The notes under the pieces: model-generated
What the model saw: only the letters and a program-made list of their open reading frames with translations
The model's database searches: none
Told to the model about the DNA's origin: nothing
DNA from: Eledone cirrhosa
Lineage: Eukaryota
DNA length: 64,000 bases
Assembly (NCBI GenBank): GCA_964016885.1
Contig: OZ024741.1
Span: forward strand, 216,938,001 to 217,002,000
Direction: 5' to 3'
Part shown: in pieces, positions 19,398-62,700 of the stretch
Numbering within the stretch: the stretch's first letter is position 1
Layout: each line of letters opens with the position of its first letter
Program-made: the position numbers and the translations under genes

Positions 19398-20044
19398 CAC
19401 CAAAACAGGAGAACGCTACTACCAAGGAATATGTCAAATGTTATAAGATGTCGTATTCTATGGCAGACAAACCCACACCCGCTGTTCCCTTCACCCCCAC
19501 AAATGGCACTGACTTCCCGATGGCTATGCATTATCCAATGCACCACATTCCCTACGCCCCCTATATGCAAAACTACGGTTGGTGTGGTGGCTACGGATGG
19601 TATTCCCACGTCCCTGGCATCCAACACTGGTGTGGAAACAACTGTATGGGTGGCTACTGCCCAGGAACCCACTGCGCGTGTAACGGACACTGCAACGTAC
19701 ACACAGGCCTCTACCATGTTCCTGGCATGAATTACTGGTGCCACAACAACTGCCATTGGGGTCACTGTCCCGCAAGCCACTGTAACTGTATGTATAATCT
19801 CGAGATGCCGGAGTCATCTGACGAATCAGTAAAAGAAGCAGATGGAAACGTAGTACCAAAAGGGCCAAAATCACCCAAAGGACCTTCGGCTTCTCCAACA
19901 AATACCCCAACTGTAGACCCAACAGATTCAGAAGACTCAAACGATGAAAGCGACCTCTTCAAGGGGTGGTATGATCAACGGAAGTTCCAACAAGACAAAC
20001 TGAAGCGACAACGACTTTACGTCATTCAGATGTACTTTCGATAA
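19398..20044 (+). CDS. Exon 3 (terminal) of the host gene: end of the LPMO-like domain, Met/His/Pro/Tyr/Gly-rich linker, two Cys-rich modules, acidic/Pro tail
   Basis: ttccag acceptor at 19396-19397, phase 1 (T+CA=Ser), matches exon 2. Contains repeats HVPGIQHWCGNNCMGGYCPGTHCAC and HVPGMNYWCHNNCHWGHCPASHCNC. Stop TAA ends at 20044 and AATAAA is at 20075. The three exons sum to 1047 nt = 349 codons. Confidence 0.85.

Positions 20045-33279: not shown

Positions 33280-33282
<3 letters not shown>
30610..33282 (-). mobile_element. 5'-truncated R4/Dong-type RLE LINE (family B), open ORF 30774-33260
   Basis: 828-aa RT-CCHC-RLE (HLFYMDDLKL, CRVC..HIISMC, RHD, RPDII). (TTA)n at both ends. Confidence 0.96.
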
Positions 33283-34146: not shown

Positions 34147-36019
34147 ATGTCTCAGGCAGACATTCATTTCCCGCTATTACCAATGACTGCAGGTGTTAAA
34201 GCCTCCACCACCACCACCACCGCGACAACCACCACCCCCACCACCACCGCGACAACAGAAACAAAAGAAGAAAAAAATAAATTAACTCGTGATGTCGAAA
34301 TGAAATCAAGCAAAATGGACTCTTCCCCACCAAAGACGACTGACGTCACCACCACCACAACTGAAACTAAAATTAATATTAACACAAATAACGATAGCAA
34401 CAACAACAATGACATTATAAAAACGACCCCCAGTTTTGCAATAGTAGCAAAACAGTTCGAAGCATTTACGGTAACTCAGGAGGATTTAGAAAATGCCAAA
34501 CAAATGGTAAAGAAAGATGGGTACAGGGTCAGCCTCACCCCACCCCCACCCCCACCCCCCACCTAATAAAATGGAGCATCGGCGCCTATGCACCGTGTCG
34601 TATCGAACTATAAATGTAAAATCGCGCCGAGTGGAACGGGCATCCGAATCCCAAATCCAAAAAGCTTTGGGACATGTGTGGGCAAGAAAAACCCACATCA
34701 GACGTGGGCAGAAGTATGGAACCGTGGACGTGTTCTTTGAAACACCAGAGGAGGCTAGAGAACACTCCATGGCCCCATTAAGAAGTGACGACTTCACACT
34801 CGTCCCAAGCTATTGTGGCCAGAGACTCGTAAAGATCAGGGTGACCCACGTTCCACCGGCCATCGAAATTCCCTGGCTAATAGCGGCCGTCCTCGCCGGC
34901 ATCGAAGCCAACACAAAAATAATAGCAATAGCATAAGAAAAGCAGGAGAACTGGTCCGGATCTGGGATGGAGCTCCTGATCCAAGCGGACCAAAAAAGCA
35001 TTGAGGAGATCCCAGAGGTAATAGACCTCACTGACGGCAGCCACCTCACGGTAATAGTCGAGGGCAGAAGACCTAGGTGTGTCGTTTGTGGTGAAGGAAC
35101 CCACCTAAGGGCTTTCTGCCCTCAGGCTAAAAGGTTGAGGCCACCTCTCCTACCCACCCCAGTGACACAACCATCAACACCACCAGTAGCAGAGATGGCA
35201 GCAACAACTGTAGCAGCAACAACAGAAGCAACTATAACAGCAACAACCCCAGCAACAGTAGCAAAACCAACACCACCACCACCACCAGCAAAACCAACAC
35301 CACCACCACCCAACGCTTCAGAACTAGCACCAGCGCCTACACCATCCACCACGCCACAACCAAAACTAACGCCTGTGGAGGATTTTCCACTCCCCGGCCT
35401 ATCACAACTGGAGACAGATTGTGACGACGAGGAATGGGAAACGATATCCGGAAAAAAAAAAAGAAACCAAAAAAGAAAAAATTCTCTTCCTTCCCCCACC
35501 AAAAACAAAATACAGAAGGAAACAAATAAACTAAGAAACAAAAAAGTTAGGACAGATATGCCACCATCCACACCAGCATCACCAACCCCATCAACCCAAA
35601 CACCAACACCATCACCATCATTAACTCCAACACCACCATCACCTACACCACAAAAGTCACCAAAATGCGAAACAGAAACAAACCCATAACAAACGCAAAC
35701 AAAACAAAACAACCAAAACGATACACACTACACAGCATTAAATTTGAACAACAAGCAATTATTACACTACATCCAACACAACACCAGCATCACAGAAAAA
35801 GACTACACAACAACCCCAAAATTCACACCACCTCCACACATACAAATCACTCGCATCACACAGAAAACGTACATGACACTAAAACAAAAATTCCCCAAAG
35901 ACATCGGAGACTTCCGACAAGCACTCTCCAGGAGGATTTATAAGGACATCCTTCCTGAGGAAGCCACAAGCAGGGAAAAGGATGGAAAAACCGTCCTTCC
36001 CCTACGAGAAGTAAGGTAA
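34147..36019 (+). pseudogene. Tx1-type ORF1 (Thr/Pro-rich, zinc knuckle)
   Basis: One frameshift in the C-rich run near 34550 and two in-frame TAA stops (34934, 35687). ORF pieces at 34517, 34967 and 35744 share one frame. Confidence 0.85.
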
Positions 36020-36053
36020 GTGGTCTTTCCCATCTTTTCCACTCCTTTTCAAC

Positions 36054-39000
36054 ATGACCTCACTCAGAATAGGCAGCATAAATGCGCGTGGCTTGGGGTC
36101 GTCATGGAAGCAGGGCCACCTGCTCAACGACCTCAGGTCACTAAACATAGATGTAGTGGCCATCAGCGAGACCAGAATCTCCGAAGCACAGGCTTTCGCA
36201 CCGATCTTCGGCGGCTACGATGTGTACGCATCTCCCAGCCGTCCGGGATCGGGGGGAGGAGTTGCTGTGCTTTTTCGGAGAGGTTTGGATCTTGCCATAC
36301 GGGCCATCTTCCTGGACCCAGAAGGTAAGTTGGTGGTGCTGGACGTGACCAGCGGAGACGGACAAGCTTTCAGGTTAGTGGCCGTCTATGCCCCGACAGG
36401 AGCAGGGCGGCCTGATTTCTTCCGGCGTCTGGAGACCTTTCTTGGAACTTCCCGCTCTTTAGTGTTAGTGGGCGACTGGAACGGGATCTTAGATGCACGC
36501 TGGGATTGTGTGGGATTAGTGGATAGGGAAGGAGGGTGCAAGAGTCTCACCGACCTGCTCAGACGTTTTGAACTGTCTGACAGGTACCGAATAGATTTCC
36601 CGAATGCACCAATGTGGACTTGGACAAATCGCATAGGGTCATCCAGATCATATCTAGATAGAGTATTTTGTAGGGAAATAGATAGGTCTAGCATAGGCTG
36701 TCCACAATTCAAGATAGTCAGCTACACGGGCCACAAATTCGTGATCTGTGTGCTTGACTTAGATAGCCTTCATAGGCGAGGACCCGGCTACTGGAAGCTA
36801 AACGCGTCCTTACCAGCGCGCAAGGCCTACAGAGACCGGATTAGCGAACTAGTTAAGCGGGCGTTGACGGGGGCCATCGTCAACAACAAGTGGTGGTTTG
36901 CTGTGAAAAGAGCAATTAGAATAGAGTCCATTAGGTTTAGTAAGACTTTAGCAATAGAGAAAAATAGAGCAGAGGGAGAACTAGTTAGAAAATTAGATGA
37001 GGCGCTTAGCAAAGACATCGCGACCGACGTACTTGCGGCGAAATTGGCCCTTGGCCAATTCTTCAATGCAAAGCACGAAGGCTGCGTTGTCAGAGCTAGG
37101 GTGCGTGCTCTCAGACACGAGGGGACGAAAGCCGTTCAATGGGCCCGAGTGGCGGAGGCGCGTCGTGGCAACAAAGCCACGATCCGGTCTTTGGTGGACC
37201 ACGACGGGCGCATGCTACTCGATCCCGGGCAAATGTGTGAAGCTTTTCAGCGACACTTCGCTCAACTGTTCGGGGGCAGTGGCGGGCCGGATCGAGGGAT
37301 GGACTTTAGTGTCTACCTCGACGGACTGCCGCGGCTTTCGGCCACTGAGGCGGAGTGTTGCGAAAAGCCGATAACAACCGCTGAAGTACGGGATGCAATG
37401 ACTACTTGCACAAGGGGTAAATCGCCTGGTTTGGATGGTCTGCCCTATGAACTTTACGTACAAATGCCAAACTTGTTCGGAGGCCTCTTGGCGGACGTCT
37501 ACTGCAACTGGCAACAGAACGGGAGAATTCCCAGCTCTGTGAGCCGAGGAGCGTGGCGCTGCTGAGAAAGGATCCGAACAAGGGGGATAACATAGATAAT
37601 TTTAGGCCCATAACTCTGCTAAACACAGAGTTCAAGATTTTGGCCAAGGTGCTAGCAAAGAGGTTGGCGCTTGTCGTTGGTGGTCTGGTGGGAGAGGCAC
37701 AGACATGCGCCATTCCCGACAGATCCATCCACGACAACCTCCACCTCATGCGATACATCGTAGAGAGGGTAGCTAGGGAACCTGGCACGGGTGGGTCTTT
37801 GATCAATTTAGATCAGTCGAAAGCCTTCGATAGGGTCGACCATCGTTACCTAGAGGCAGTCCTGAGGGCGGCTGGCTTTGGGCCCGTCTTCAGAGACTGG
37901 ATCGCTGCCATGCACAGCAACATCTGCTCTGTAGTGAGAGTGAACGGTCACCTTTCGGAACCGTTCAACATCATGCGCTCGGTCCGCCAAGGATGTCCCC
38001 TCTCGTCCCTATTGTACGTATTGACTCTCGAGCCATTACTGCACAAACTGGAGACGTTGAGGGGGATCCCGCGCGAACTAGGATGCGGAAGATCCGTGTC
38101 AGCATATGCCGACGATGTCACCGTAGTGGTGTCGAACGCCAAACACATCGAGGCGATCGGCACTACACTAAGAGAATACGAAGCGGTGACAGGAGCAATG
38201 ATCAACCAGGAAAAGTCAGTGGGCCTGCAGCTCGGCACCTGGAGAGGCAGGTCCATGCCGTCCAACAGCGTCGTCGGGCGCTGGACAGACGGACCGGCTA
38301 AATTGCTAGGGGTCTGGTTCGGTCCAGACCTCCAGACGGACAAAAACTGGGACGAGGTGACGACAGGGTGGCTTCTCTCACCCAGAAATGGGCCGAGAGG
38401 AAGCTATCCCTGAAAGGTCGAGCGGAGGTGGCTAACGCGTACATCGCGTCCGTCATCTACTACCGCCTGACCGTCGTACCTTGTCCTAAGCCCCGCCTGA
38501 CTGCGCTGGAGCGTTTGCTCTTTCGCTTCTTGTGGAAGGGACGCGCTCCGATGGTCAGGCGGTCCATCTGCTGTCAACACCCGCTACGTGGAGGGCTGGG
38601 CATGCCGTGGCTGATGATGCGCAGACACGCGCTCAGGCTACGACATCTCCACCTCTTCCTCGACGGTGATCAGGTGTGGTCGCCGTTTGCTAGACACGTT
38701 TTTCCCCAGCTCGTCTCCTTGACGGAGCTGCAGTCCTGGGTCAAGCGAAGACCGAGAGGGAGCGCTTGGAGACTGGAATGTCTTCAGGCGCTCACAGCCC
38801 TCGACCAATCGGGCAATGTGATCGGTGGAAACTCCACCTTGGCGTTCTATAGGGGATTAGTGGAGGGGAAGAGCGACGACGTACTTGGAGAAACTCTAGG
38901 CGTCGACGAAAATCAACTAGCCAATCTCTTCGGAAGGACTTTCGGGCCGGGGCCTATGGACAACTTCCAGAAATCCCTGGCCTGGCAGTGCTACCGGGGT

Positions 39001-39471
39001 GCTTTGCCAGTTCGGGATAAACTTTACAGGCATGGAGGTGCCGTCAGCCGGGCATGTCCGAGATGCGCACAGGGCGACGAAACCGTCCTGCACGCACTCG
39101 TCCAGTGTCCGAGCATTGCTGACTTGTGGGTTTATGTCGAACACCTGCTGTCACGTGTAGGACGGATCCAGCTATCAGCTGAGTCCATCGTGAGGATTGC
39201 CCCGCCCTCTTCCTTTAGCCGGGAAGGGCAGGCAGTTTTTATCTGTCTGGTGGCCATGGCGAAAGAGATAGTATGGTGGACACGTTTGAAAGGGCTGAAG
39301 ACGAGCACTTACCTCTTCGGTGATGCCCTGATTAACTTTTTCAAATTTCATCTGAAAAGGAAAATCAGGGTAGAGAGGGAAGTGCTCTCTTCCCAGCATT
39401 TTGTTGAAAGATGGGTGAGAGAAGCAAGTATGGCCCGAATGAATGGGCCTTCTCTGAGTATGTGTCTGTAA
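36054..39471 (+). pseudogene. Tx1-type ORF2 (APE-RT-zinc domain) with two frameshifts
   Basis: ORF pieces 36054-37565, 37553-38413 and 38368-39471 are collinear. Confidence 0.93.
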
Positions 39472-39840: not shown

Positions 39841-42800
39841 TCAGATATTCAGGACGTATCGGAGGGTTCTTGCTGTTCCAAGCAAGCATGCCTTTTGAAG
39901 CGTTCCAAAAAGCGTGAAGGGGCCGATTTTCTTTAACCATCCCTGGAAACCTTTGGAGATAGTCCCCAGTGCGCCTATGACAATCGGGATCACTTTGACT
40001 TCATGGCAGTTCCAAATCCTTTTCACCTCCCACTTTAGGTCCTGGTATCGGTTAATTTTCTCCCTCTCCTTCTCTTGCACTCTCGTGTCGAACGGGCAGG
40101 CCACATCCACAATCAGGCACGATCTTTTTTCTTTGTCCACAACCACCAGGTCAGGTCTATTGTGTTCCAGTTTTTTGTCCGTCTGTATCCTAAAATCCCA
40201 CAGCACCTTCACCTGACTGTTCTCCATCACCGCCTCTGGCCTATGCTCATACCATTTCTCAGAATGTGGTAGATTGTTTACTTTGCACAGGTGCCAGTGG
40301 ATCACCCTGCCCATCACATCGTGTCTCCAGCCCTTATAGTGGGTCTGGGCTAGGTGTTTACACTCGGACACAATGTGAGCCACAGTCTCCTCTCTCTCTC
40401 CACAGATCCTGCACAGTGGGCTAGCCTCCTCCTTGTAGATATGGTGCTTCAACCACTTCGTTTTGAGGGCCTGCTCCTGCGCAGCCATTAGCATTCCTTC
40501 TGTAGCCTTTTTGAGGTCTCCTCTTCTCAACCAGTTCCATGTCTGTGGATCTCTAAATTCAGTTTTCTCAAAGAAGGTACTATGAAGGGATTTTCCCTTA
40601 AGGCTGCTCTTCCTCCTTGATGTTATTTCCTCCTTGGACATCCCCTGGCCTACTGTCCCCTCCTTCAGTACAGTTCTGAGCATTGGCTCCTTACTATAGG
40701 TCACGTATTTGTATAGGTTGTTTTTCTCCATCTGAACACAGTCCTCTATGCTGATAAGACCTCTTCCACCCTCAGATCTCCTTAGGTAGAGTCTATCGAC
40801 ATCACTCCTCTTGTGGAACATGTTGTAGATAGTCAATAGCTTCCTAGTCTTCCTATCCATTTCTTTTTGTTCAGCAACATTCCATCTCAGAATTCCCGCA
40901 CTGTACCTAATAATAGACACAGCTCGGGAATTTACTGCGCTTATGGCATTTCTGCTGTTCAGATGTGACTTCAATACGCTCCTTACTCTCCGAATGTATT
41001 CAGTTCTTAACAATTCCTTCATTTTTTTGTTCTTTATGCCATCAGCCTCCAGAACGCCCAAATACTTGTATCCTTCCTCAGAGTCAATTTCCTTTATCAT
41101 CTCACCTGTTGGTATCTGGATCCCGTTACTTCTGCTCAACCTACCCCTCTTCATCACAATGACTCCACATTTACCAATACCAAACTGCATACATATATCA
41201 CTGCTGAAAATACGGACAGTGTCAACAAGCACATCCAACTCCTTCTCACTTTTCCCGAAGAGCTTAAGATCGTCCATGAAGAGGAGGTGATTGATGGTAA
41301 GCTCTCCCCTTCCCAACTTGTATCCTGCTCTCACTTTTCGCAGCATAATGGTCAAGGGCATCAGGGCAAGGACAAACAACAGAGGGGACAGGCTATCTCC
41401 CTGGAAGATACCTCTCTTGATCTTCACGCTTCCCAAGGATACTCCAGTTGATGTCAACTCTGTCTCCCAGGACCCCATACTCCTGCCCAGCAACTGTCTG
41501 ATGTTATCTGCCACCCTGAAGATCTCCAGGCTTTTGGTGATCCAGGAATGAGGCACCATGTCAAATGCCTTTCTGTAGTCTATCCATCCCATGGCAAGAT
41601 CAGTGTGTCTCCTCCTGCAATTCCCCATTACCATCTTATCAATAAGCAACTGGTCCTTTGTACCACGTGACTTCTTTCGGCATCCTTTCTGTTTGTCCGG
41701 TAACAAGTTGTTTGTGTGGAGGTGATGGTAGATTTCCTCAGACACAATGCTCGTCAACAGTTTCCACATTACGGGCAGACATGTGATAGGTCTATAGTTG
41801 GTAACATCATTACCCTTGATTCGGTCTTTCATTATCAGAACTGTGGTACCTTTTGTCAACCACTCTGGCACCTCACTCGACACCAAGCAGTCATTGAACA
41901 TGGCCGTCAGCTTCGGGTGGAGGGATGTTAAATGTTTAATCCAATACCCCTGCACACCATCTGGGCCTGATGATTTCCAGTTGGTTAGTTTTTTGGCTTG
42001 CCCCTTAAGAGTTTCAACTGTGATACTCAAATCAGTCTGTTGTTGTGCCTGCTCACCTATCTCCCTCTGTACTGTCTCAATCCACCCTGCCTGGGCATTG
42101 TGTCTAACATCCTGCTCCCATATTCCTCTCCAGAATGTTTTAGCTTGTTCCGCCCCAGGGATCAAGTCGTTGCCTCTTTCTTTCCCCTCAAGCTGTCCAA
42201 ACAGCATCTTCTGGTTGTTGTCGAACATGCGGTTCTGTTTATACTGACTGACTCTGTTCTCGTATCGCCTGATTTTGGCACTCTTTGCTACAATGCGTTG
42301 CTTCAATTCCTCTATGATAATATTTAGCTTTTTACTCCTAGTTTTGTATTTTATTTCCAGTCTATTTTTAGTGCCTATGTTTTTTAGTGTCCCATTCAGT
42401 AGTGACTCAAGCTTTCCTATGTCATTTCTCATTTCCCCGATTTGCCCACTCAGTCGCTTCTTCCACCACGGCTCTGCTCTTTCTTGTCTGTTGTTTCCTC
42501 TCGCTTTTATACCAAGTAGTTTCCTCACCGTATTTGCTGTTGCTTTGAGGATATTGTTGCACTGGTGAAGGCTCCTCGCCTCAAGGTATGGGATGACTTT
42601 GTTTACCTTAGCTGTTGTTTCTTTTAACTTTTTCCTGTCTACAAATCTTAGGTTCATAGGTCTCCCACTATCATTGTTCAATTCATCTACCACTAAATTT
42701 AGGATGTCAACCGAATCTTGTCCTAGCCCGTCAGCATTCATCTCCTCAGTGGCCGTATCTCTGTTCCAGGTATTATTTATCTCAGTATTCAGATCATTGT

Positions 42801-43233
42801 CTGCTTCGGGTGGTTCCTCCGTTCTCAGGACCTCCTCACCTTCATTTCCCACCGGCTCGCTTGTCTGGCATACTACACCCGCCATCTCCAAGCCATTCTC
42901 TCTGCTCAGTTCCTCCAGTTCCAGCTCGCTTATCCACCCATTAGTTCTTATTACCCGAGCCTGCCCGGCCAATTTTTGTTCATCTAATTTAAATAAACCA
43001 ATCTCGTTCCAGATGTTATGCATCCGTCTCCTGTAGCCCCTCTCCTTGGGGTTACTTTTCAGGTAGCATTGCATAACAGTTCTATTCAATTCTTTCGTCC
43101 AGTTGGTTCTGGCCCCTTTCCTTCTTCTTCTTCCTCCAACATCATCAGTATTTGGTTGACAGTCAGGTTCCTGCTGCTGAGCCAGGGGGCACCTGTTGGG
43201 TGAGAGTCTGTCACATGACGTTCTAGTCTCCAT
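39841..43233 (-). CDS. Intact 1130-aa ORF of the R4/Dong-type RLE LINE (family A)
   Basis: N-terminal WTKELN..VMQCY...GYRRRMHNIW domain, RT, CCHC and PD-(D/E)xK RLE, with no stops. 3' UTR and (TAA)n tail at 39717-39840. Confidence 0.96.
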   Translation of the reverse strand: METRTSCDRLSPNRCPLAQQQEPDCQPNTDDVGGRRRRKGARTNWTKELNRTVMQCYLKSNPKERGYRRRMHNIWNEIGLFKLDEQKLAGQARVIRTNGWISELELEELSRENGLEMAGVVCQTSEPVGNEGEEVLRTEEPPEADNDLNTEINNTWNRDTATEEMNADGLGQDSVDILNLVVDELNNDSGRPMNLRFVDRKKLKETTAKVNKVIPYLEARSLHQCNNILKATANTVRKLLGIKARGNNRQERAEPWWKKRLSGQIGEMRNDIGKLESLLNGTLKNIGTKNRLEIKYKTRSKKLNIIIEELKQRIVAKSAKIRRYENRVSQYKQNRMFDNNQKMLFGQLEGKERGNDLIPGAEQAKTFWRGIWEQDVRHNAQAGWIETVQREIGEQAQQQTDLSITVETLKGQAKKLTNWKSSGPDGVQGYWIKHLTSLHPKLTAMFNDCLVSSEVPEWLTKGTTVLIMKDRIKGNDVTNYRPITCLPVMWKLLTSIVSEEIYHHLHTNNLLPDKQKGCRKKSRGTKDQLLIDKMVMGNCRRRHTDLAMGWIDYRKAFDMVPHSWITKSLEIFRVADNIRQLLGRSMGSWETELTSTGVSLGSVKIKRGIFQGDSLSPLLFVLALMPLTIMLRKVRAGYKLGRGELTINHLLFMDDLKLFGKSEKELDVLVDTVRIFSSDICMQFGIGKCGVIVMKRGRLSRSNGIQIPTGEMIKEIDSEEGYKYLGVLEADGIKNKKMKELLRTEYIRRVRSVLKSHLNSRNAISAVNSRAVSIIRYSAGILRWNVAEQKEMDRKTRKLLTIYNMFHKRSDVDRLYLRRSEGGRGLISIEDCVQMEKNNLYKYVTYSKEPMLRTVLKEGTVGQGMSKEEITSRRKSSLKGKSLHSTFFEKTEFRDPQTWNWLRRGDLKKATEGMLMAAQEQALKTKWLKHHIYKEEASPLCRICGEREETVAHIVSECKHLAQTHYKGWRHDVMGRVIHWHLCKVNNLPHSEKWYEHRPEAVMENSQVKVLWDFRIQTDKKLEHNRPDLVVVDKEKRSCLIVDVACPFDTRVQEKEREKINRYQDLKWEVKRIWNCHEVKVIPIVIGALGTISKGFQGWLKKIGPFTLFGTLQKACLLGTARTLRYVLNI

Positions 43234-44318
43234 TTCACCGTTATTCGAACTGTTTATGTTCGATATTTAAACACTCTTATCGAGGATTGGCGAATGTATG
43301 TTTACATAGCCATCTGTGGATCCGCCATCCCACTTGGCCCTTGTGTGGCATTATCACCACGCTGTATACGAACACACATAAACAAACAAACACACGGGCA
43401 GAAAGGGCCCCAAAAATGAATAAGCATAAGTTTCATTGTAATGTAGTATTCGAATGTCTGACTTAGTTTTTGTTTTTTAAGTTTTACTTTTTCCCCCCTC
43501 TTCTCTGTCCGTCCGCCTGCTTCTCTCTTCATTCTTATTTTCTTTACGTTTTTGGGGTTTCTTTTTTTGTTTTTGTTTTTCTCTGTTTGTTTTTCTCGTT
43601 TTTGCTGTTGTTGCTGTGCTGCTTTGGTTTTGTTGTTTGTTTTTTCTTTTTTCTTTTGAGTCTATCTATATATTTTGATGCCTTCCTCTTTGTTAGTAGT
43701 AGGAATTCTATAATGTGGAAGTAGCAGCCAGCAGGGAGAAGTGGGAGACTGGCGGCGGTAGCGATACTGAGACAGTGGTGGTGGTGATGTCGATACCGAG
43801 GCAGTGGTGGCGGTGATGCGACCGTATTACTGTAGTGATGGTGCTGTAGCGGTGGCAGCAGTGAAGGAGTCAAGGGGTGGTGGCGGCGGTGATGGGATAG
43901 TGGTGGTAATGATGGCCGTAGTGAGCGGTGGCGGTGAAGGTGAAAATGTCGTTATCTGGCTGTTGTGTTTAGTGTACACAGATGATGGGGTGGGTGGTGT
44001 ATCTAGTTTCTGGTGTTGGTGAGTTTAGCTGTCCTATATAGTGTAGCCAGAGGAGAGGAGGGGGGTGGTTCTTCTTCTTCCATTTATAGCCATTTTTTTT
44101 TTTTTTGGATATACAGTGTACAATACAAAGTTGAATATTTGAATATTTGAGCCTTATAACAATATATTTTGGGTCCGAATTTTTGGGGGCTCAAGCCGGG
44201 TGCTTTACGTAGCATTTGTACTAAGAGTTGTTATTTCACAAATGATTTAAATATGTTAAAAATTCAAAACTTACGGGAGCGATTTCATGACCTCCGTCAC
44301 CTCGTGCGTCTTCTTCCC
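43234..44318 (-). mobile_element. Long leader or decayed upstream ORF 5' of the intact Dong-type ORF, starting at a (TTA)n array
   Basis: Minus-strand sequence begins immediately after (TAA)n at 44319 and has an ACC/CCA-rich low-complexity stretch. Whether it belongs to the Dong element is uncertain. Confidence 0.45.
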
Positions 44319-44547: not shown

Positions 44548-47500
44548 CTTGGCTGCTGGAACGTACGGACGCTGCTTGACAGGGATTCCTTGGAGCGTCC
44601 TGAACGAAGGACCGCTCTTGTTGCAAAGGAGCTTCGACGTTACGATCTTGACATCGTGGCTTTATCTGAGACGAGGTTAGCTGGAGATGGTCATCTTACA
44701 GAATTTTGTGGAGAATATACATTCTTCTGGAAAGGAAGAGATGAAGGAACCAGAAGAGAGGCTGGGGTAGGATTTGCTGTTAAGACTGTTCTTGTGAATA
44801 AATTAGAAGAATTCCCAGTAGGCATTAGTGAGCGTCTTATGTCTATGAGAATTCCGCTGGACAAAGGATGATATGCGACCCTGGTGAGTGTGTATGCTCC
44901 AACTATGAATTCTGTCGATGAAGAAAAAGTGTCCTTTTACCATGCCTTGAAAGGTGTTTTAAGAAATATCCCTCAGGCAGACAACGTCATCGTGCTTGGT
45001 GACTTTAATGCTAGAGTTGGTAGGTATTTTAACACATGGAATGTAATCGGAAGGCATGGGGTGGGAAAGTGTAACAACAATGGTATGCTCCTGCTGCAGA
45101 TGTGTGAGGAGCTGGATCTGTGTGTTACCAACACCATGTTCCAACAAAAGAACAAATTCAAGACCACATGGATGCATCCTGCATCTAAGGAATGGCATCT
45201 TTTGGACTACGTCCTAGTCAGGATGCGTGACAGAGAGGATGTGCAGTGTGTTCGTGCTCTTCGTGGAGCTGAGTGCTGGACGGACCACCGCCTGGTACGC
45301 ACAAAAGTGAAACTAATCACTAAACGTAAAATCCGGGCTCCTGGTGTTGCCCTGCCCAAAATATTGAATGCTGCTCGTCTTAAGGATAAAAATGTGAAGA
45401 GGGCATTGGAAGAAGAGATGCAGGCTGCAGATCTTGGTGAGGATTGGCCGACCCTTAAAAAGTCGGTTTATGATGTAGGCAGGCGTGTTCTGGGATTGGT
45501 GCAGAGAGAACATCAGGACTGGTTTAATGAGAATGATGTACATATAGAAAACTTGTTGGCTGATAAGAGACGTGCTCTGTCACGCTACTTGACGGCAAAA
45601 CCACAGGAGAGGAATACGTTGCATGAGGAACTCAAGGATGTAAAATCACGTGTTAGGCAGAGTCTTTCTCAGATGAAGGATCAGTGGTGGAGTGAGAAGG
45701 CTAGTGAGATACAAACTGCGTCAGATTCCAATAACACAAAGCTGTTGTACAGTCTCTTGCGTGAGGTTTATGGACCCTCTTCTTCTCTAGTGACACCGCT
45801 TCGCAGCAAGGATGGCAAAGAACTTCTTCGTGACTCACAAGGAATTCTTCGAATGTGGCGAGAGCACTTTGATGATCTTTTGAATCAGCTGTCTGTCGTC
45901 AATGAAAATTTCCTCAATCTCATTCCAGAAATTCCTGTGAAAGTAGCTCTCGCAGAACCTCCGACGCTTGTGGAGGTTGCAGTGGCTATTTCGAAGCTGA
46001 ACAATGAAAGATCTCCAGGTATGGATGGCATACATGCTGAGCTCCTACAATATGGTGGTGAGAGACTCCTGCAACATTTTCACTCTTTGTTTGGCAGGAT
46101 ATGGGCTAATGAATCCGTACCTGAGGACTGGAGAGATGCAGTAATGGTGGTCATGTACAAGGGAAAGGGTAACTGGAATGATTGTGGGAACTACAGAGGT
46201 ATATCATTGCTTTCTGTCGTGGGGAAAGTTTTATGTAGGGTGCTTCTGGACCGTCTGCTGACACACATTGCATATTGTGTTCTTCCTGAAAGTCAATCTG
46301 GTTTTCGTGCTGGACGTGGCACTACTGATATGATCTTCTCAGCTAGACAGCTCCAGGAGAAGTGCATGGAACAAGGCTTGGATCTGTATCAGGTTTTTGT
46401 CGATCTGACAAAAGCTTTCGATACTGTTAACAGAGATGCATTATGGAAGGTTCTCCAGAAACTTGGTTGCCCTGATAAAGTTCCTTGCTTTAGTTAGGTC
46501 TTTCCATGACGACATGAAGGCTTGGGTTAATGTCGGAGGTAACATGTCGGAGCCTATCTCAGTAAAAAATGGAGTGAAACAGGGGGATATTCCAGCACCG
46601 ACCCTGTTTGCCATATACTTTGCAATGGTTTTCTGTATTGCATTCAGGAATTGCGAGCATGGTGTTTACATCCGATATCGAACCTCAGGCAGCATATTTA
46701 ACATCAGGCGCGTTGCTGCAAAGACAAACGTATTTACATCAATCATAAGAGACCTCTTGTATGCAGATGATTACGATCATGTAGCGCACACAGAGAGTGA
46801 TATGCAGCACATTTTGAATGCATTTTCTGACACTTGCACTGCCCTAGGATTGACTGTCAGTCTCAAGAAAACCGTCGTCATGTACCAACCTACCCCTGGT
46901 AAGCAGTACACTGAACCAAATATCTATGTGTATGGTAGGGAAGCACTGTCAATCGATACAGCAACCTTGACAGTGAAATCTCACTTAGGATTAGGAAAGC
47001 AAGTGATGCTTTCGGAAAGCTAGAAAGGCGACTCTGGGGTCGGCGAGACATATGCAGGAGGACAAAGGTAAAGGTGTACAAGGCATGTGTGCTCTCTTGT
47101 CTTCTTTATGCTTGCGAGACGTGGGTCACATATCGACACCACCTTAAGCAATTGGAGCGTTTCCATCAGATGTGTCTCAGACGGATCCATGGCGTTCACT
47201 GGAGGGACCACATCAGTGATGTCAAGATTTTGGAAAGCTCTATGTGTGACAGTATAGAAGCTCTTGTGCTTAGGCAACGACTCCGTTGGAGTGGTCACCT
47301 TGCCAGGATGAAGGATTCTAGAATACCAAAACAACTCTTTATGGAGAGTTGGTTAAAGGAAAACGACCGCCACATAAACCAAAAAAGAGGTATAAGGACT
47401 CCTTGAAAGCCTCTTTGAAAGACGCTAACATCTCTGCTGATACATGGGAAAATATTGCTGCTGATCGTAATAAATGGAGAAAGACTGTATTTGAGGGAAA

Positions 47501-51385: not shown

Positions 51386-54100
51386 TCATGAAATATTACT
51401 GTGGTGTGATTTAATTTTTTTTATGCCCTCTGTATAGGGGTCGGGGTTTTCAATACTATGATCATATTTAATTTTATTCGTGGCCGTGTTGTGTGAAATT
51501 ATATTAGGTTGTCTATGGTTGGTTGATGATTTAGGTTTAAATTTAATTTTATCTCTATGGCCGGAACGAGCTAAGGCTTCATTATAGTATTGGGAGTTAC
51601 GGTTAAACGTATTCTCGTTGTAAGAAAGACTGGAGATTCTATTAGATACTCCTTTAATGATTGAGGTCAATACAGATTTAGGGTGGTTAGAGTTGGTATT
51701 AACATAGAAAAGTTTTTCATTAGGTTTATGATAAGGAGTATATTTTTTAGAGTCTAAGTAGAGAGTAACGTCCAGAAAGTTAACATTTTTGGTGTTTTTA
51801 TCTAAAGTGATACCTAAGTTGTAGTTTTTAAATATTTTATGTAATTGTTTTCTAGTTCTTTCTATATTGAATTTTTTAAAGTCTAAGAGGAAAAGTGTGT
51901 CGTCTCGATAGAGACCCCCGTTAAGGTAAGGTAGGTTCTTATGCATTTCGTTTAAGAGAAATAGACCAACTAAGTCGGTTACCTGTGCCGAGTCGCTAGA
52001 TCCCATAGTTGGTCTTCAAATTTAATTATTGTTTTCCTGGTCCCAAGGATTATATCTACCTGGGATCTAGTGAGTTCACTATTGTTCATGGTCATTATTA
52101 ATGCTTTATTTAAAAGTATAGGTGAAATAGAGGTGTAGTAGGAGTTTATATCGAATTGGATGAATTTCTTATTATTATATTCATTAATACCATTAAACCA
52201 TTCGATTACTTCACTAGTGTTTCCCCAGAGGTTAAAATTGTTCGTTTAATTTGGGGGATTACTTTATCTAAACGTTTTTACTAATAATACCAATGTCGGA
52301 TCTGGATGGGCAAATAAGTCTAATTGGGGGGTTAGTATTGAAGTCATCCTTATGGTCTTTCAAAGAGAATGGTGAGGGATTAGGGGTGTACAGTTGAATA
52401 TATCTCTCTAGTCCTAATTTACATATTAAACTACGGGCTTCAATATTTATGTCATCCAGATTTTTATGAGATGCTTTTTTGTAGTTCCTATAAAGTTCTT
52501 TATATATAAATTCTCTATATGTATCGTAATCTAGGCTATATATGTTTTTAGTTTTATCAGCTAGTACTAAGATATTCCTATTTTTATTAAAGTTTTTTAT
52601 GGTGGAATTTAGGTCATTTAGGAAGTTCTTCTTATTGTAGTATTTCCTGTACTTAATTGTTTTAACAAGTGACACAAGGTCGTTTTCAAATGAGTCCAGT
52701 AAGATATTGTGTGGAGGGATTTTATGTTTTGAAGCCGTATGTTTCAAACGAAGGTGCATCTTGTTCTTTCACAGCGCGGTTCCTATCATAGTGGAAAGCC
52801 CTCCATCTAACTCTTTTAATAAAAGATTTGACATTATTAATCAGTAGTTTTTCATATGTATCCTTAGATGGTATAGGTATGTTCTCTAAAGACAAAGGAA
52901 GATAATCTTTGATCAAAATATCGGTAATTTTATATATGTCAGCTCTACAAGAAGGAACAGAATTAGTAATGAGGATATTTATATTTATATATGTTTAATA
53001 CAACTATAAATATGGATGGTAGTACTAAGTACTAGCCGGTTACCGGTATGATAAAAGACTCAATGCAAATTTTCAAGTGTTTTACAGAGCTGAGATACAA
53101 AGTCTTAAAACGATCAAATTTTAGTTTAGAACATTTATTTGCTGACAATTGTTTCTTCCAGAGGGAAGTCTGGAACCATCGGAGCATGAGGAATGTTGAA
53201 ACATATGACTAAAATCCTAGTCATTCAGAACATTTAGGGTACATAATTGTTTTTAGTGTCAAAAGCATCGTGTGGAGAGTCAGGAGTTAAAAAGATGTTA
53301 TGCTTGAGAGAACACAATTACAGACAGCACTTGTTGAAAGTGTAAGAGGTATAAACAAAATGTACAGGCAAACAAGTAACAAGCAAGGAAAACTGGTGTA
53401 CAATTCAGGAGTCAATACAGTCAATAAGGCATGTATGAGGAAAGAGTTATAGTGCAATTGAAATAAACATATTTTGTGTGGGGTGTTAAAGCATGTTATA
53501 ATTGTTATAAATGTTTAAGATAGTCTGCAATTTATTAGAGAGGTATGTGGTGATGATGTAGGTATTTGTTATGTGAGGTCTAATGCAAAGCACGTGATAG
53601 AGTTGGATAGGATTTTCATTCAAGTGTTTATGTGTTGTAGTTCGTATGTATATGTATATGTTGTTTGTAACTCACAGCTATTAACCATGGGATTATTTTG
53701 AGTCGTTTAAAGTCAATAGGTGTTTGTTTGTTAAATGTAGATTCCACCGAATTACTGGCCATGTTGTTATTGTAGGTATATTATCTTATGCATTTTTTAT
53801 CTACAAATTATCCTTTCTAGGGTTTGTATTAACCGTTATTAAGCTGTTGGTAAACCGTTAGGCTGCTTAATTTTATGAGTTTACACAGGAAGTTGCAAAG
53901 GGGTTAATAATAAACGGAGGTAATTAAGGTTGTTGATAAATGCAGGGTTGTTTATTTATTATTGTAGTAGTGTTATAAATTAATCTTTATAGAGTATATA
54001 AAATATTATTGGTTATATAATTGTTATCTTTTAAACTTGTGTGGAGGGAGTTAGACACATTTTCTTAATTATTTTATTATAACTAGAAAGTTTTTATATA
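51386..54100 (-). mobile_element. 3'-truncated decayed Naiad-type PLE (third family) with upstream pLTR
   Basis: SLENIPIP, FIKRVRWRA, ADKTKN, LKDHK..F..NP..RLICP, MGSSDSAQVTD, GGLYRDD and SNHP. Hammerhead at 53140. Confidence 0.9.
53140..53186 (-). ncRNA. Minimal hammerhead motif with a variant core (CCGAUGG)
   Basis: Minus strand: UGCU-CCGAUGG-UUCCAGA(cuuccc)UCUGGAA-GAAA-CAAUUG-UC-AGCA. All three stems are intact. Confidence 0.72.
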
Positions 54101-56050: not shown

Positions 56051-57100
56051 ATGTGGAAGACATGGAAAAAATTCCTTAACATAAGAAAACAAAATTTCTG
56101 GAAAGCATACAGATGCGAAAAATATGTCGAAACACATTCGAAATGGCTCTCTCTAACGGCACCCATACTCCCTCGTAAATACCTAATTACAGAAATTGCA
56201 GGAGAACCAGAAGAAGAAACAAAACTCCGATGGGAACTTACATTGACAAAATTCAGGACCGACATCTCCATTTCTGAATGTAAACAATCCCGCTACAAAG
56301 CCAAATATGAAGCTATTGATGACCAAATTGAAGTTGAAATTTCAAAGCTAACGACTGGTATTATAGCTGAAAAACTACGAGAACTATGGATCGGAGATAT
56401 CTCAAAAGAAGAAAACAAATCAAGAAAGGTATGGCAGCAGAAACAATTATTTCTCGATGAATATGCTGCAAATTACGGTAAAGACTCTGGAACCCTGAGA
56501 AAAAGCATTAAAAGTGGACAATCTCATCAACACAACATACGCCAGAACACATGCCAACACAAACACTCACCTTACCTTGAATCAAAGAAGAACTACGGTA
56601 ATAACTCTTCGCTTTTTCTACAAAAACACCCTATCGCACACAACATGAACAAAAAGCACAAACACGATAGGTATTCCTTTGACCAGACCATGAGAAGTAG
56701 TAAAACCAGGAGATCATTCTCAAGATCTCAACAGAGACTACCAACAAGGAATGTGGAAACAAAACGTAGAATAACCAGATCACTCTCAAGATCTTAACAG
56801 AGATTGCCCACAAGAAACTGGACGAAAAAACGATCTAAACCTGAAAGCAAACCTAGGTCATTTTCCCAGATTGTTAAAAATAATGCTAACAGGAAGAAAA
56901 ATAATATACAGAATACCAAAAATAGGACAAAATACATAACGAAACCAAATATAATATCACGACCAAAAGTTCATCAAGCGAACACCAACAGGAATATAAA
57001 TCCTGAACAGAGAAAAATTCATTTTTTAACGTCAGGACAACAAAAACCGGAAAAAGAAAAACTCCAGGAGGAAACATACCCAAAACAGCTGTACACGTAG
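56051..57100 (+). pseudogene. ORF1 of the Neptune-type PLE (helical N-part, basic Ser/Arg-rich C-part) with one nonsense mutation
   Basis: 56051-56797 and 56804-57100 are in the same frame. The TAA interrupts a peptide repeat (SRSQQRLPTRN vs SRS*QRLPTRN), which implies CAA>TAA. Confidence 0.75.
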
Positions 57101-59334
57101 ATCCTAAAATAATTAATTTATCTAAAAGAGATCTTGACAATGATGAAATGCAAATTCTGTCAAAAGGACTGAAATTCACACCGACTCCAGCAGTCAACCA
57201 CCAAGAACTGAAGGAGGATACCCAAGAATTCTGTCGAAAATTACGTCTTGTAGAATTCTTCGCTGATAAAAATAATGAGAGTGATGAATCACTAGTAAAG
57301 AATAAATCAAATTTCACTCCGCCAAAAGGAAGAAATATCTATCTCGACCAATACATTGACATCCTGTCTAAATTTCCTCTTAGACATAATACTAATGTTA
57401 GGCCAAACATTAACAAATCAGAAATGTCTGCACTTAAACGTATACAAAATGATAAAACAATAATAATTAAACAAGCAGATAAAGGGGGTGCAGTTGTTAT
57501 AATGGATACTGAATACTACAAGGATTTGGTTGAGGAACAACTGAAAGACACAACATTCTATCATGAAATACCGTCAAATATAGACCACAACATCATGAAG
57601 AAGATCAACAACCTGGCTTCAAAATACCACAACTCATTTACTGATAAGGAAAGAGACTACATCACCAATTTTGAGCCGAAACCCAGCAACCTGTATGGCC
57701 TACCGAAAGTTCACAAGTCAAAAGAAATACAACTGGCAGTAAGAGCACAAAACAGTGAGTACATTAAATTATTACACCCAAAAGACTTAAAACTTAGACC
57801 TATTATAGCTGGTCCAACATGCCCCACTCACCGTCTAAGCAATTTTGTTGACATTATTTTGAAACCACTATGTATTCACATACCCAGTTTCATCCGGGAT
57901 GATATCGACTTCCTGTCCCATCTTCCCAAAACCACGGAAACGAATTCACTTCTACTCAGTTTTGATGTGGTAAGCCTTTACACCAACATTACACATGATT
58001 TAGGAATAAAGGCGGTTAAATACTGGGTGGAAAAACATAGAGAAGTGATTCCCATTAGATTCACAGCGCCATTTATATTAGACGCAGTTAAACTTATTCT
58101 GGAAAACAACACTTTCTTCTTCAATGGAAAGAATTACATCCAAATTAGAGGCACAGCGATGGGAACGAAGTTTGCTCCCGTTTACGCGAACTCTGTAATG
58201 GGATACTTAGAACAACAACTCTACCAAGAAATAGAGGAAAAATATAGTACTGACTTTAGAAAGTACATTGAAAAATCTTGGAAGAGATACCTTGACGACT
58301 GTTTCATCATCTGGACAGAATCTCTAGATACTCTGGATGAGTTCAATATCCTCCTGAATAACCTACACCCATCTCTCCAATTCACAAAAGAGATGAGTAG
58401 GACCAAATTACCATTCCTAGATATAATGATAATCAAAAACGACACCACCATTACCACGGATATATATTATAAACACACAGACACCCATCAATATCTGAAT
58501 TTTAAGTCGTGCCATCCACCTCATACAAAACGCAACATCCCATACTGCCTAGCCAGAAGAATTTGTACCATTGTAGAAGATACGAATACCAGGTACAAAC
58601 GCCTAACAGAACTAAGAGAATTTTTGCTCAAACAAAAATACCCATCTCTACTTATAGAAAATGGCATACAGCGGGCTATAAAAATACCTATACAACAACT
58701 TAGAACAACCCAAAGAAGAAGAAACCAAGAACTGGTCATACCATTTATAATGACACACAACCCATGTCACCAGAATATCTTCAACACTGCCAAAGCAAAC
58801 CTACCGATCATTGCTCAAAGTAATGAATTAAAAGGCTTAATCACAGATCGATCTTTGACTCTTAGTAAAAGACAGCCAAAAAATTTGAAGCAATTGCTAA
58901 CAAAAGCAAAGTTTGACCTTAACAACAAAGACCAATCATTCACTGTATCTAAATGCAATGATAATCGATGCGGCACATGTCAATCCATACACGCCGGTCA
59001 ATATATGAAAACAAAAACTGGAAAAATATTCACAAATGCAAATATGAACTGCAAAAGCAGAAATCTAATTTACTGCATTAAATGCCCGAATTGTGAAGAA
59101 CTATATGTCGGTCAAACTGGAAATGCACTATCGGAACGTGCACGGGTACACCGTCAACAAATCAGAGACCCAAATGTCCGTCAGATACCCCTAAGCGGTC
59201 ACCTGGCAACATGTGGTCAGGGAATATTTATAATATTCCCATTCTACAAATTACACAGCCCAAATGAAATCAAGAGAAAAATCAAAGAAAAGAATTTTAT
59301 TGATAAATTCAAACCCAAGCTAAATGAACAATAA
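57022..59334 (+). CDS. Intact RT + GIY-YIG ORF of the Neptune-type PLE, probably entered by -1 frameshift
   Basis: The frame is open from 57007 to 59334. The conserved IINLS motif precedes the first ATG (57148). T_TTT_TTA lies at 57022-57028. Confidence 0.9.
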   Translation, partial: FFNVRTTKTGKRKTPGGNIPKTAVHVDPKIINLSKRDLDNDEMQILSKGLKFTPTPAVNHQELKEDTQEFCRKLRLVEFFADKNNESDESLVKNKSNFTPPKGRNIYLDQYIDILSKFPLRHNTNVRPNINKSEMSALKRIQNDKTIIIKQADKGGAVVIMDTEYYKDLVEEQLKDTTFYHEIPSNIDHNIMKKINNLASKYHNSFTDKERDYITNFEPKPSNLYGLPKVHKSKEIQLAVRAQNSEYIKLLHPKDLKLRPIIAGPTCPTHRLSNFVDIILKPLCIHIPSFIRDDIDFLSHLPKTTETNSLLLSFDVVSLYTNITHDLGIKAVKYWVEKHREVIPIRFTAPFILDAVKLILENNTFFFNGKNYIQIRGTAMGTKFAPVYANSVMGYLEQQLYQEIEEKYSTDFRKYIEKSWKRYLDDCFIIWTESLDTLDEFNILLNNLHPSLQFTKEMSRTKLPFLDIMIIKNDTTITTDIYYKHTDTHQYLNFKSCHPPHTKRNIPYCLARRICTIVEDTNTRYKRLTELREFLLKQKYPSLLIENGIQRAIKIPIQQLRTTQRRRNQELVIPFIMTHNPCHQNIFNTAKANLPIIAQSNELKGLITDRSLTLSKRQPKNLKQLLTKAKFDLNNKDQSFTVSKCNDNRCGTCQSIHAGQYMKTKTGKIFTNANMNCKSRNLIYCIKCPNCEELYVGQTGNALSERARVHRQQIRDPNVRQIPLSGHLATCGQGIFIIFPFYKLHSPNEIKRKIKEKNFIDKFKPKLNEQ

Positions 59335-59710
59335 TAACGCCTAGGGGTATTACTTCTACTACCACTATGACCACGACCACTAACAACAACAACAACAACA
59401 ATAATAATAATAATAAAAGTGATGTTGATGGTGATGATTAATAGAAAATGCTATTTTCATCATTTCAAAAAAGCAAAACAATTGATACGTTGGATATGAC
59501 TATTGGTCGTTAGCATGCTCAACCAGCCGTGACGCTTAAACCAATCAGCTGTAGTAATTCAGTGAAACTACACACTGATTGGTCGAAATACAGTTTACAG
59601 GGCTTTGCATTCTGGAGCCACTTTTCTCTGTATAAAATGTATAAAAGGTAGGAAATTTACCCATCTCATTACAGTTGAAAATTGCAAACTCGACTGTCAC
59701 CATATATCAT

Positions 59711-59750
59711 GAACCTGAAGATTGCGAAAGCATGAAAGTACTTAGAATTT
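59711..59750 (+). ncRNA. Degenerate minimal hammerhead in the Neptune 3' pLTR
   Basis: CUGAAGA-uUGC(gaaa)GCAu-GAAA-GUAC-UU with palindromic AAGUACUU. Stem I does not pair well. Confidence 0.4.
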
Positions 59751-62700
59751 AATATTCTATCATACTATTTCATTATAATACCATTATATATATTTTAAAG
59801 GATTGTAAATAAAACGAGTAAATCAGACAAAGTTGGAATTCCTCTTATTAATATAATCTTCTATACACAATCATACACACCCGTGTATATTTACCTATCT
59901 ATATCTATATATATAAATATATATACACATATATGTGTACATAGACACATACATACACATCAATATACACTCGTACAAAAATATACATACATGCAAAGAG
60001 AAAAGCGTGCTAATTGTAGTTATGGCAAAAAGAAGGTAAAGTAACATTGTAGTAGTGAAATGAGAAAAACTAGGATCTAGGATCAAATGATTGCAGCAGC
60101 TGAGAAGGAGTAAGATTGTTGGTAGATGAGGTATTTACAGACAATTGTGTGGTATAGACTTGTGAAGGAAATAGTATACTTAATGAATATATTTCTGTGG
60201 GTAGTAGGTATCCTAATTTAAAGCTATGTTATGTTGGTTCGATTCACGGAGGTTTGAATCTTATGAATTTAGTGGCTATACTATGTCTGCAGAAGATAGA
60301 TCTTTCTAACTTATTATTAAGTAGCCTTTTAACATTTCTAAGGATATACAATAGCTCAAGATCACACAGCCCGCAATAGGACATCCCTGTACTATAGGTT
60401 TTAGCAGCCGACAACTTCGACCAGTTGATAGTGTAGCTAGCGTTGCTGTCCTTCAATTCCCATATTTTTCTGGCGAGGGTGGTGGAACCCATAAGTGCTC
60501 GATTTTTCATTGAGTGCCTGTGCACATACCATCTTTTCTTAAAAGAACCCGCGGTGGATCCTATGTAATTCCAGGTGGAGTTACCCGAGATGACAGTGCA
60601 CATGTACACCAGGCTCGAATCGAGACATCTGTTCGCCAATGGGCACCTATCTGGGAGGTGACAGTTGCAGTTTGAGGCGCTATTTTGTGCAGCTTTTACA
60701 TTCCTATTTAGTACCCTGTTATAAGTGGGTTGTGATATATGCCCCATGGGGTTTTGCTGCTGCGCGTTTGTATGCGCTTGTGGTTGTGATGTTGTGATGA
60801 GTTTGTGCTTATGTATAGGTGCAATTGATTTACTTGAGATATTTCTGTGGTTGATCTTGCGTATGTGTGATTCTATGTTAGCTGCTGTTGAGAAAGAGAG
60901 TTTTATAGTAGATCTATTGAGTATTTTGTGATATCTATGCGAGATAGGGAAGTGTTTATCTATTAGTTTAAAGAATGTAGAGGGCAGTCTAGTTTTTATA
61001 GAGGAGTTGAATATTGGGTTGAACCATAGGTATTTTCTTTGTCTGTTTCTTCTATTGTTTCTAGGGTTTACGTTATTAGTGTTTTGGCCGTTTACTCTAG
61101 GTGTTACATGTCTAACCCTATGTCTAGTCAAGCTATTCCTATTATTATGTGAGCGGTTGGAGTAGAAATTACTAGGATTGTTTATGTTGTCCTTATTCAC
61201 TATATACTGTAGTTTATCTTATGACCGGCCCTACTTAATGCTGCATTATAATAGTCAGCATGCTCGTTAAAGATTTCTAGGTTTGAGGATAGGCGGGATA
61301 TTCGGAGGGATATACTACGTGCTATGGATTTAATTATGGATTTGGGGTGATTTGAGTTGTAACTAATGTAGGCAAGATTTTCATTATTTTTGTGGAAAGG
61401 TTCTATTAATCCAGTATTTAGATTTAGAGTTACATCTAGAAAATTTACCTTCTTATGGTTTAGTTCGTAGGTAATACTTAGGCCTAGTTTTTTGAAGAAT
61501 ATTCTAATATTTTTCCTTAGTCTTTCCATGCTCTGGTTGTTTAGGTTCCTAGCTATAAGTAACGTGTCGTCCCTATAAATTCCTCCTTGGAGGTTACTGA
61601 ATTCCTTATGTAGGTTGTGTGCTATGAATAGCCCCACGATATCTGTAATTTGCGCAGAATCATTTGATCCCATTGTAATATCGAAGCTATTTATTCTATC
61701 CTTTCTTACCCAGTAGTTATTTTCAAATTTTACGATAGTCCTTCTAGCCGCTATTATTATTTCAATTTCATCATGGGTAAGATTAGAGTTATTTTGGGCA
61801 AATATAAGCGCCTTATCTAGGGTAGCTGGGGATATGGATGCATAATAGTCGTCTATATCAAATTGTATGAAGTTACACGTCTCCCTATTTTGTATTTTAT
61901 TGAACCATTTAATTGCCTCGTTAGTGTTGCCCCATAAATTGATTTCTAGTTTACCCTTTATTTGTGCGATTACCCTATCTAGAATGTTTTTGCTAATTTT
62001 ACCTATGTCTGACTTGGATGGGCATATTAATCTAATGGTGGGATTAGTTTCAAAGTTATTTTTGTGATCTTTCAGGTTAAATGTAGGGTTGCACGGGGTA
62101 AGCGGTTCGGTCCTATCTGAAATTCCGAGTTTATTAACTATCTTGAGGCCCTCCATGTTTATGCTGGTGAGTGTAGATTCATATGTTTTTTTATATTTTT
62201 TATGTAGTTCACGCTGAATAAAGTTATTGTATGTGTTAATGTCCATAGAGTATACGTTTGATGTTTTGTCTGCTTTTACTATGATACCGTTAATGTCTTT
62301 TAGTTTTTTAAGTAATGTATTTAAGTCATTTTGCAATTTGTTGTGATTTGTTCTTTTTTTAAATTTAGTTTCACTTATCATGTTCATAAGGTCCAGCTCG
62401 AAGGCATCGAGTGCGGGGTTGTTTGGCGGGTTTTTGCAGGATTTAAACCCGTAATTCTCCTTGGAAAATTCCCTTCTGTTGGTATTCGGTCCCTTATCGA
62501 AATGGTAAGCTTTCCATCGGACCCTGCGGATGAAATCATTAGTCCGTCGTATCATGCCCAGTGTATAGTCCTTTTTTGTAGGTACAGGTTTGTTTTTTTA
62601 GTGACATACCTATACAGTGCTTCTCCATGTTGTTGCCGTGCGTTAATGGTGTTGCTCGACCAGGTGGGAGCTAAATATACGGATTAACAAATAATAGTTA

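Follow-up and report, generated by a model that had tools for sequence, protein, structure and literature searches.

How can an endonuclease-bearing Penelope-like element (PLE) produce its reverse transcriptase (RT) when the RT frame lies at -1 relative to an upstream frame and the conserved N-terminal motif of the enzyme precedes any ATG? The question is posed by an element in a 64,000-nt stretch of the Eledone cirrhosa genome (GCA_964016885.1, OZ024741.1, positions 216,938,001-217,002,000, forward strand), referred to below as the window, with coordinates counted from its first base; the family to which this PLE belongs is called the window-copy family. A first-pass annotation of the window had suggested that a gag-pol-like -1 ribosomal frameshift joins the two frames. 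For the family, the pattern of conservation described here supports that suggestion, but the window copy itself cannot use the site. We consider it likely, from sequence conservation, that -1 frameshifting at the heptamer U_UUU_UUA makes the enzyme; the feature is real and clade-wide, and it varies on an arrangement for which other PLEs provide precedent.

The window element is a dead copy of a two-frame retrotransposon

All features of the element lie on the forward strand. ORF1 extends from about 56022, where the copy starts, to a TAG at 57098-57100, and close to its end it reads CAT TTT TTA (57020-57028; His-Phe-Leu), exactly where first reported, so that the heptamer T_TTT_TTA, the candidate -1 slippery site, occupies 57022-57028. 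The RT frame is closed upstream by a TGA at 57004-57006, 15 nt 5' of the heptamer, and is then open from 57007 to 59334 (775 aa), which bears out the earlier reading; from the heptamer onward (57022-59334) it constitutes ORF2, without stops. The open frames overlap by 94 nt (about 90 had been estimated), or by 79 nt counted from the heptamer, and the -2 frame meets a TAA immediately at the heptamer (57027-57029). The motif IINLS, conserved among RT homologues, is found at 57109-57123 and does precede the first ATG (57148-57150), again as annotated.

ORF2 has Pfam matches to an RT core that includes the YLDD motif (57901-58323; RVT_1 E 3e-06, just below the curated cut-off) and to a GIY-YIG endonuclease at the C-terminus (59065-59325, above the cut-off), whose CCHH-like positions are filled by two Cys and two His. 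Between the two lies a C-X4-C-X2-C linker (58954-58980) that fits the C-X(2-5)-C-xx-C definition given in passages of PMC8557442 for Neptune and Nematis. A 3' pseudo-LTR (59552-59915) matches sequence 5' of ORF1 in fuller copies, and tandem or inverted partial copies are present. RT followed by endonuclease, pseudo-LTRs and partial copies are the marks of C-terminal endonuclease-bearing (EN+) PLEs, and the endonuclease sets the element apart from the EN- Athena/Coprina group. The linker agrees with the label Neptune-type given in the first-pass annotation, although the label reflects motifs, one of them common to Nematis, and not a tree. Within the pseudo-LTR, a hammerhead-like core (CTGAAGA...GAAA, from 59715) was recognized by eye against a consensus and has no Rfam match; this region carries a 15-nt deletion near 59740 in the window copy, and a minimal motif of the same kind, below Rfam detection, is also seen in the pseudo-LTR of another locus (L009).

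Two lesions had escaped the first-pass annotation. ORF1 is 449 aa long in intact copies and lacks its first ~90 codons here, and an in-frame TAA at 56795-56797 is private to the window copy (1 of 59 matches drawn from loci L001-L060, some of which overlap). Because of the 5' truncation and the private stop, ribosomes never reach the site in this copy, and our claim therefore concerns the family. The window element is thus dead, one copy of a young Penelope-like retrotransposon that has two frames and carries an endonuclease.

Elsewhere in the window, a segment on the reverse strand (60244-62597) has similar fragments at 9756-10541, 24004-24828 and 51386-52015. ORFs of non-LTR retrotransposons were recognized by eye from translations at 27925-33281 and 39841-43266 on the reverse strand and at 36015-39471 and 44872-47023 on the forward strand, one of them open for 1141 aa. 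A single-copy host exon on the forward strand (19399-20044) encodes a Cys/His/Gly-rich repeat with no Pfam match.

The two-frame state is the family state

The 40 genomic matches with the highest scores hardly differ from the window element, and the fuller copies combine the 449-aa ORF1 with a pseudo-LTR 5' of ORF1 that is the same as the one 3' of ORF2 in the window. We counted copies with a pattern that leaves a free gap of 4-9 nt at the T-run and requires exact flanks, and so favours young copies. Six T were present in 298 of the 324 genomic matches and seven T in 3; the remaining 23, seen in part, include four substitutions and one five-T run among the first 100 matches listed. An independent contig set agrees, with no indel at the T-run reaching 5% in a contig run that behaved as genomic DNA. 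Of four contig runs of unrecorded type, this one was taken as genomic from its coverage of unique host DNA without differences, a second spans repeats only, and neither of the two enters the case for or against splicing. When the genome was searched with the ORF1 protein, only the window-copy family was returned among the 150 candidates scored of 1637, and none of 597 pattern matches in metagenome contigs was confirmed.

These counts bear directly on the possibility that the element has a single ORF and that mutation or misassembly produced the offset in the window copy, a suspicion to which the damage elsewhere in this copy lends some colour. The first-pass annotation had looked to a seven-T consensus as the sign of a single ORF, and with six T in 298 of the 324 copies and seven in 3 that reading is refuted. 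The same state also recurs in the independent contigs, in four other families and in 80 of 97 distant homologues (see below), and we give the single-ORF explanation virtually no credence.

An offset fixed in DNA could also be repaired in RNA. One extra T fuses the frames, so RNA polymerase slipping on T6 and adding a U to some transcripts would have the required effect, and T7 does occur in three genomic matches. Slippage of this kind would, however, require neither the terminal A nor the codon phase of the heptamer, a T7 share of about 1% is compatible with ordinary mutation of a homopolymer, and a run of six is on the short side for slippage by Pol II. We therefore hold polymerase slippage to be most unlikely.

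The heptamer is retained in four other families of the same genome

We searched the genome with a degenerate pattern for an RT motif, written so as to leave out the window-copy family, and obtained 906 matches. From the first 100 listed, all on one contig, we took 56 loci covering each codon signature, with the junction ignored in the choice; they comprise four main families plus singletons. RT N-termini are 31-57% identical among the five families (the window-copy family and these four), and the flanks of the heptamer are otherwise unrelated between them. TTTTTTA was nevertheless found 60-200 nt 5' of the GLKFTPTP motif in 45 of the 56 loci and was absent from 11; in each of two equal-sized control windows it occurred in none. 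In 32 of the 45 the heptamer is in the -1 phase, 28 of these with an open RT frame. We read the 13 out-of-phase loci as copy-specific indels, although four singletons are not resolvable in this way.

The modal distance from T6A to GLKFTPTP is 144, 156, 120, 123 and 132 nt in the five families, every value a multiple of 3. The RT frame is open from the heptamer onward in all of them, the run has neither more nor fewer than six T, and the sequence over the 20 nt 5' of it is A/C-rich with only 3-5 T. Two of the four other families have an upstream frame that matches the ORF1 profile HMM, with E 2e-59 and 1.7e-31; homology is confirmed for these two only, the copies retrieved for the remaining families being truncated or broken. 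Related families thus keep both the six T and the -1 offset, the comparison that the first-pass annotation had called for. The word CAGGAY also appears 4-22 nt after the heptamer in several families (57032-57038 in the window; loci L075, L069, L082 and L092), in differing frames, and is possibly a binding site or a product of chance.

Distant homologues carry Phe-Leu near the end of ORF1

A profile built from four ORF1 sequences retrieved 568 clusters at 50% identity, the best 150 of which were listed. We examined 151 ORF1 proteins, 97 of them at least 300 aa long, with a median pairwise identity of 28.6%. The dipeptide FL occurs in the last 45 aa of 80 of the 97 (the rest of these tails is hydrophilic and resists alignment), compared with a mean of 4.4 and a maximum of 11 over 1000 shuffles (mean 7.3, maximum 16 in a second set). 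The preceding 45 aa contain FL in 4 of the 97, and the reversed pair is found in 6. In a 45-sequence alignment the only invariant residues of ORF1 are W105, P141, F425 and L426. A Fisher test against FL elsewhere in ORF1 was dropped, since one conserved K-F-L motif dominates that comparison.

FL could in part be a protein motif, but the residue before it points to the nucleotide sequence. K, E, Q, M and W, whose codons cannot supply the first U, never occupy this position (0 of 80, against a background of 19.4%; binomial p 3e-8, which overstates independence because the homologues are related), and their absence fits a codon that ends in U. The preceding residue has a U in its second codon position in only 1 of 80 proteins, which implies a run of six U in one frame and not a pyrimidine tract of variable length. 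The 17 proteins without FL in the last 45 aa include, by eye, three with FL further upstream, three with FF, three with FR and a remainder that appears truncated or out of frame. The FF proteins (P0166, P0173 and P0178) fit U_UUU_UUY, and FR (P0186, P0227 and P0269) could reflect UUU_CGN, which is a motif for +1 frameshifting.

Taken from other sources, ORF1 tails and RT N-termini can be compared as proteins alone for their fit to a single DNA. In the -1 frame they fit over as many as 15, 11, 11, 11 and 9 codons, against up to 8 codons in a +1 control (151 tails by 120 RTs). Among 211 RT homologues, the best 120 are proteins in their own right and do not exceed 845 aa in a search that allowed up to 1357 aa, and no longer relatives of ORF1 were found, which is weak evidence. 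The nearest named homologues come from mussels, oysters and a clam. Four mussel gene models (P0021, P0025, P0046 and P0121) appear to bridge or to start at the ORF1/RT junction, likely through false introns.

Separate initiation and splicing as possible alternative routes to the enzyme

The RT might be made as a protein of its own, through reinitiation, leaky scanning or use of a near-cognate start codon close to where ORF1 ends, in which case the heptamer would be incidental or encode an ORF1 peptide motif. One family does have an ATG before PKIINLS and two have a GTG at a similar place, and 64 of 120 RT homologues have been called with a start 5' of IINLS. Yet the remaining 56, as called, lack the motif, all these starts being those of a gene caller. 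The first RT-frame ATG lies 3' of IINLS in four of the five families, about 340 nt beyond GLKF in two, and the RT frame of the window-copy family offers no ATG, GTG or CTG from the heptamer to IINLS; the lack of an ATG before this conserved motif supports a fusion over an independent start. A separate RT would also leave the exclusion of K, E, Q, M and W before FL and the fixed -1 phase unexplained, and we judge it quite unlikely.

Alternatively, the T-run and the AG that follows it may form a conserved 3' splice site, such that unspliced RNA would encode ORF1 and spliced RNA would join an upstream exon to the RT at phase 2. The candidate acceptor in the window is the AG of TCAG|G (57034-57035), which lies in phase 2 with respect to the RT frame. 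In four of the five families the heptamer is followed directly by G, giving TTTTTTAG, and with the TCAG|G of the window-copy family a same-phase YAG is present at +1 or +7 in all five. Among the homologues, 63 of 80 could have such a YAG within three codons, and a G-starting codon follows FL in 57. PLEs carry and retain introns, according to passages of PMC8557442, the mussel models P0021 and P0025, read as predictions, begin or join exactly at the residue after the AG, and the three FR homologues could be TTTTAG in another phase. Against this, a splice acceptor needs no fixed ORF1 frame, no exact run of six T and no A-rich 5' flank, all of which are kept. A same-phase YAG within three codons is impossible in 17 of the 80 homologues, 11 of which could have none before the ORF1 stop, and no consensus-like phase-2 donor is present in ORF1 of the window-copy family or in two others for which long copies of ORF1 were examined. 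If the first exon were non-coding, four of the five families would have no ATG ahead of the conserved motifs, and a G after U6A is the state of HIV-1 as well (abstract of PMC4373837). We saw no family of spliced genomic copies (five matches, four of them single substitutions), an absence that carries little weight because PLEs keep introns. Overall, splicing is the main rival to frameshifting, but it strikes us as an improbable explanation of the junction.

Probable frameshifting in the apparent absence of a structured stimulator

Ribosomal frameshifting at U_UUU_UUA, our preferred reading, draws on two elements of a canonical -1 signal that are in place here: a heptamer in the phase of the upstream ORF with an open -1 frame, and its conservation beyond that of its flanks. 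The third, a stimulatory stem-loop or pseudoknot 5-9 nt downstream, was not found by simple folding and a simple pseudoknot scan. The ccgga/tccagg stem noted in the first-pass annotation proved no better than shuffled sequence (z +0.6 to +1.0 over five downstream windows), and the same is true of downstream folding in the window-copy family generally. Across 12 representatives, downstream folding yielded one z of -2.5 among 36 values, and between 3 and 40 of 40 shuffles equalled the pseudoknot scores. The heptamer can be enclosed in a TCCTGA/TCAGGA hairpin (z -1.5), but this is not evident in other families. Downstream of the heptamer there is a preference for G at +1 and at +7/+8 (57035-57036 and homologues; a G-starting codon at the latter position in 48 of 80); +7 is where a stimulatory stem would begin, and no conserved partner strand is seen.

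If frameshifting operates as proposed, most ribosomes would stop 25 codons past the Phe and release the basic, 449-aa ORF1 protein, and a few percent would slip on Phe-Leu to produce an ORF1-RT-endonuclease fusion of about 1,195 aa, 426 of them from ORF1 and about 768 beyond. Because no conserved stem or pseudoknot was found, slippage would probably arise mostly from the intrinsic slipperiness of U6A. In reticulocyte lysate bare U6A supports 4-6% -1 frameshifting (passages of PMC3458567), which is enough in principle for an enzyme. The closest parallel is HIV-1 gag-pol, which according to the abstract of PMC4373837 and passages of PMC3458567 has the same heptamer in the same phase, usually followed by G, and an immediate stop in the -2 frame. 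In contrast to HIV-1, no stable stem-loop lies downstream here, and the element is not a virus and has no sequence relation to gag or pol.

The ORF1 protein is predicted to form long helices over residues 11-241, followed by a basic disordered tail. Three ORF1 proteins matched no Pfam family below E 0.01; Atlas matches were 0.84 or lower, and there was no PDB match at E 0.001. We suspect that the protein probably binds RNA and acts as a gag-like chaperone.

Relation to other PLEs and implications

In its domains the element resembles the Neptune-clade EN+ PLEs described in passages of PMC8557442, sharing their RT, their C-X(2-5)-C-xx-C linker, the GIY-YIG domain with its CCHH-like residues at the C-terminus, the pseudo-LTR and insertions in tandem or inverted orientation. 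It differs from canonical EN+ PLEs, single-ORF according to the abstract of that paper, in that a conserved ORF1 of 350-500 aa precedes the RT, which is in the -1 frame. The annotation's premise that GIY-YIG PLEs are usually single-ORF agrees with the abstract, but the Fig. 1 legend of the same paper (Craig 2021) and a preprint legend note that in some PLE types, which may include Neptune, a frameshift accompanied by a pseudoknot can set ORF1 apart. Passages of PMC6431247 divide PLEs into single-ORF elements with an endonuclease and two-ORF elements without one, and those of PMC12602865 describe a killifish Neptune with two ORFs and do not mention frameshifting; the portions consulted of PMC3846280, PMC5408684 and PMC11167929 add nothing further on PLE frameshifting. 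In the texts searched, which excluded figures, Repbase entries and most subscription papers, we found no paper describing U6A frameshifting in an endonuclease-bearing PLE, a result that does not imply its absence from print. With the PLE types that combine an ORF1 frameshift and a pseudoknot, the element shares a PLE RT preceded by a helical or coiled-coil ORF1, to which a frameshift would join it; unlike them, it bears a C-terminal endonuclease, is dispersed and has no pseudoknot that we could find. We take the types drawn with this combination to be Athena/Terminon elements.

A broader proposal, to which we give slightly less than even credence, is that an undescribed ORF1 family (the 568 clusters, with no significant Pfam or PDB match among those tested) is common to hundreds of Neptune-type PLE lineages with an endonuclease, together with -1 slippage on U6A that needs no conserved RNA structure, the heptamer acting either bare or with the aid of a bound protein such as ORF1. 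If this is correct, the real enzyme is a fusion of ~1,200 aa, which existing annotations truncate or span by means of false introns.

An ORF1-frameshift arrangement has already been noted for some PLE types, and it is against this background that the implications should be read. If our interpretation holds, a widespread group of PLEs usually treated as single-ORF uses a gag-pol-like control of protein ratio, the protein to express in transposition studies is indicated, and a large unnamed ORF1 family is defined. The many independently diverged natural U6A sites without an obvious stimulator would also constitute a test set for the action of the heptamer and the next base alone, and the frameshift would explain the truncated or intron-bridged gene models of molluscs.
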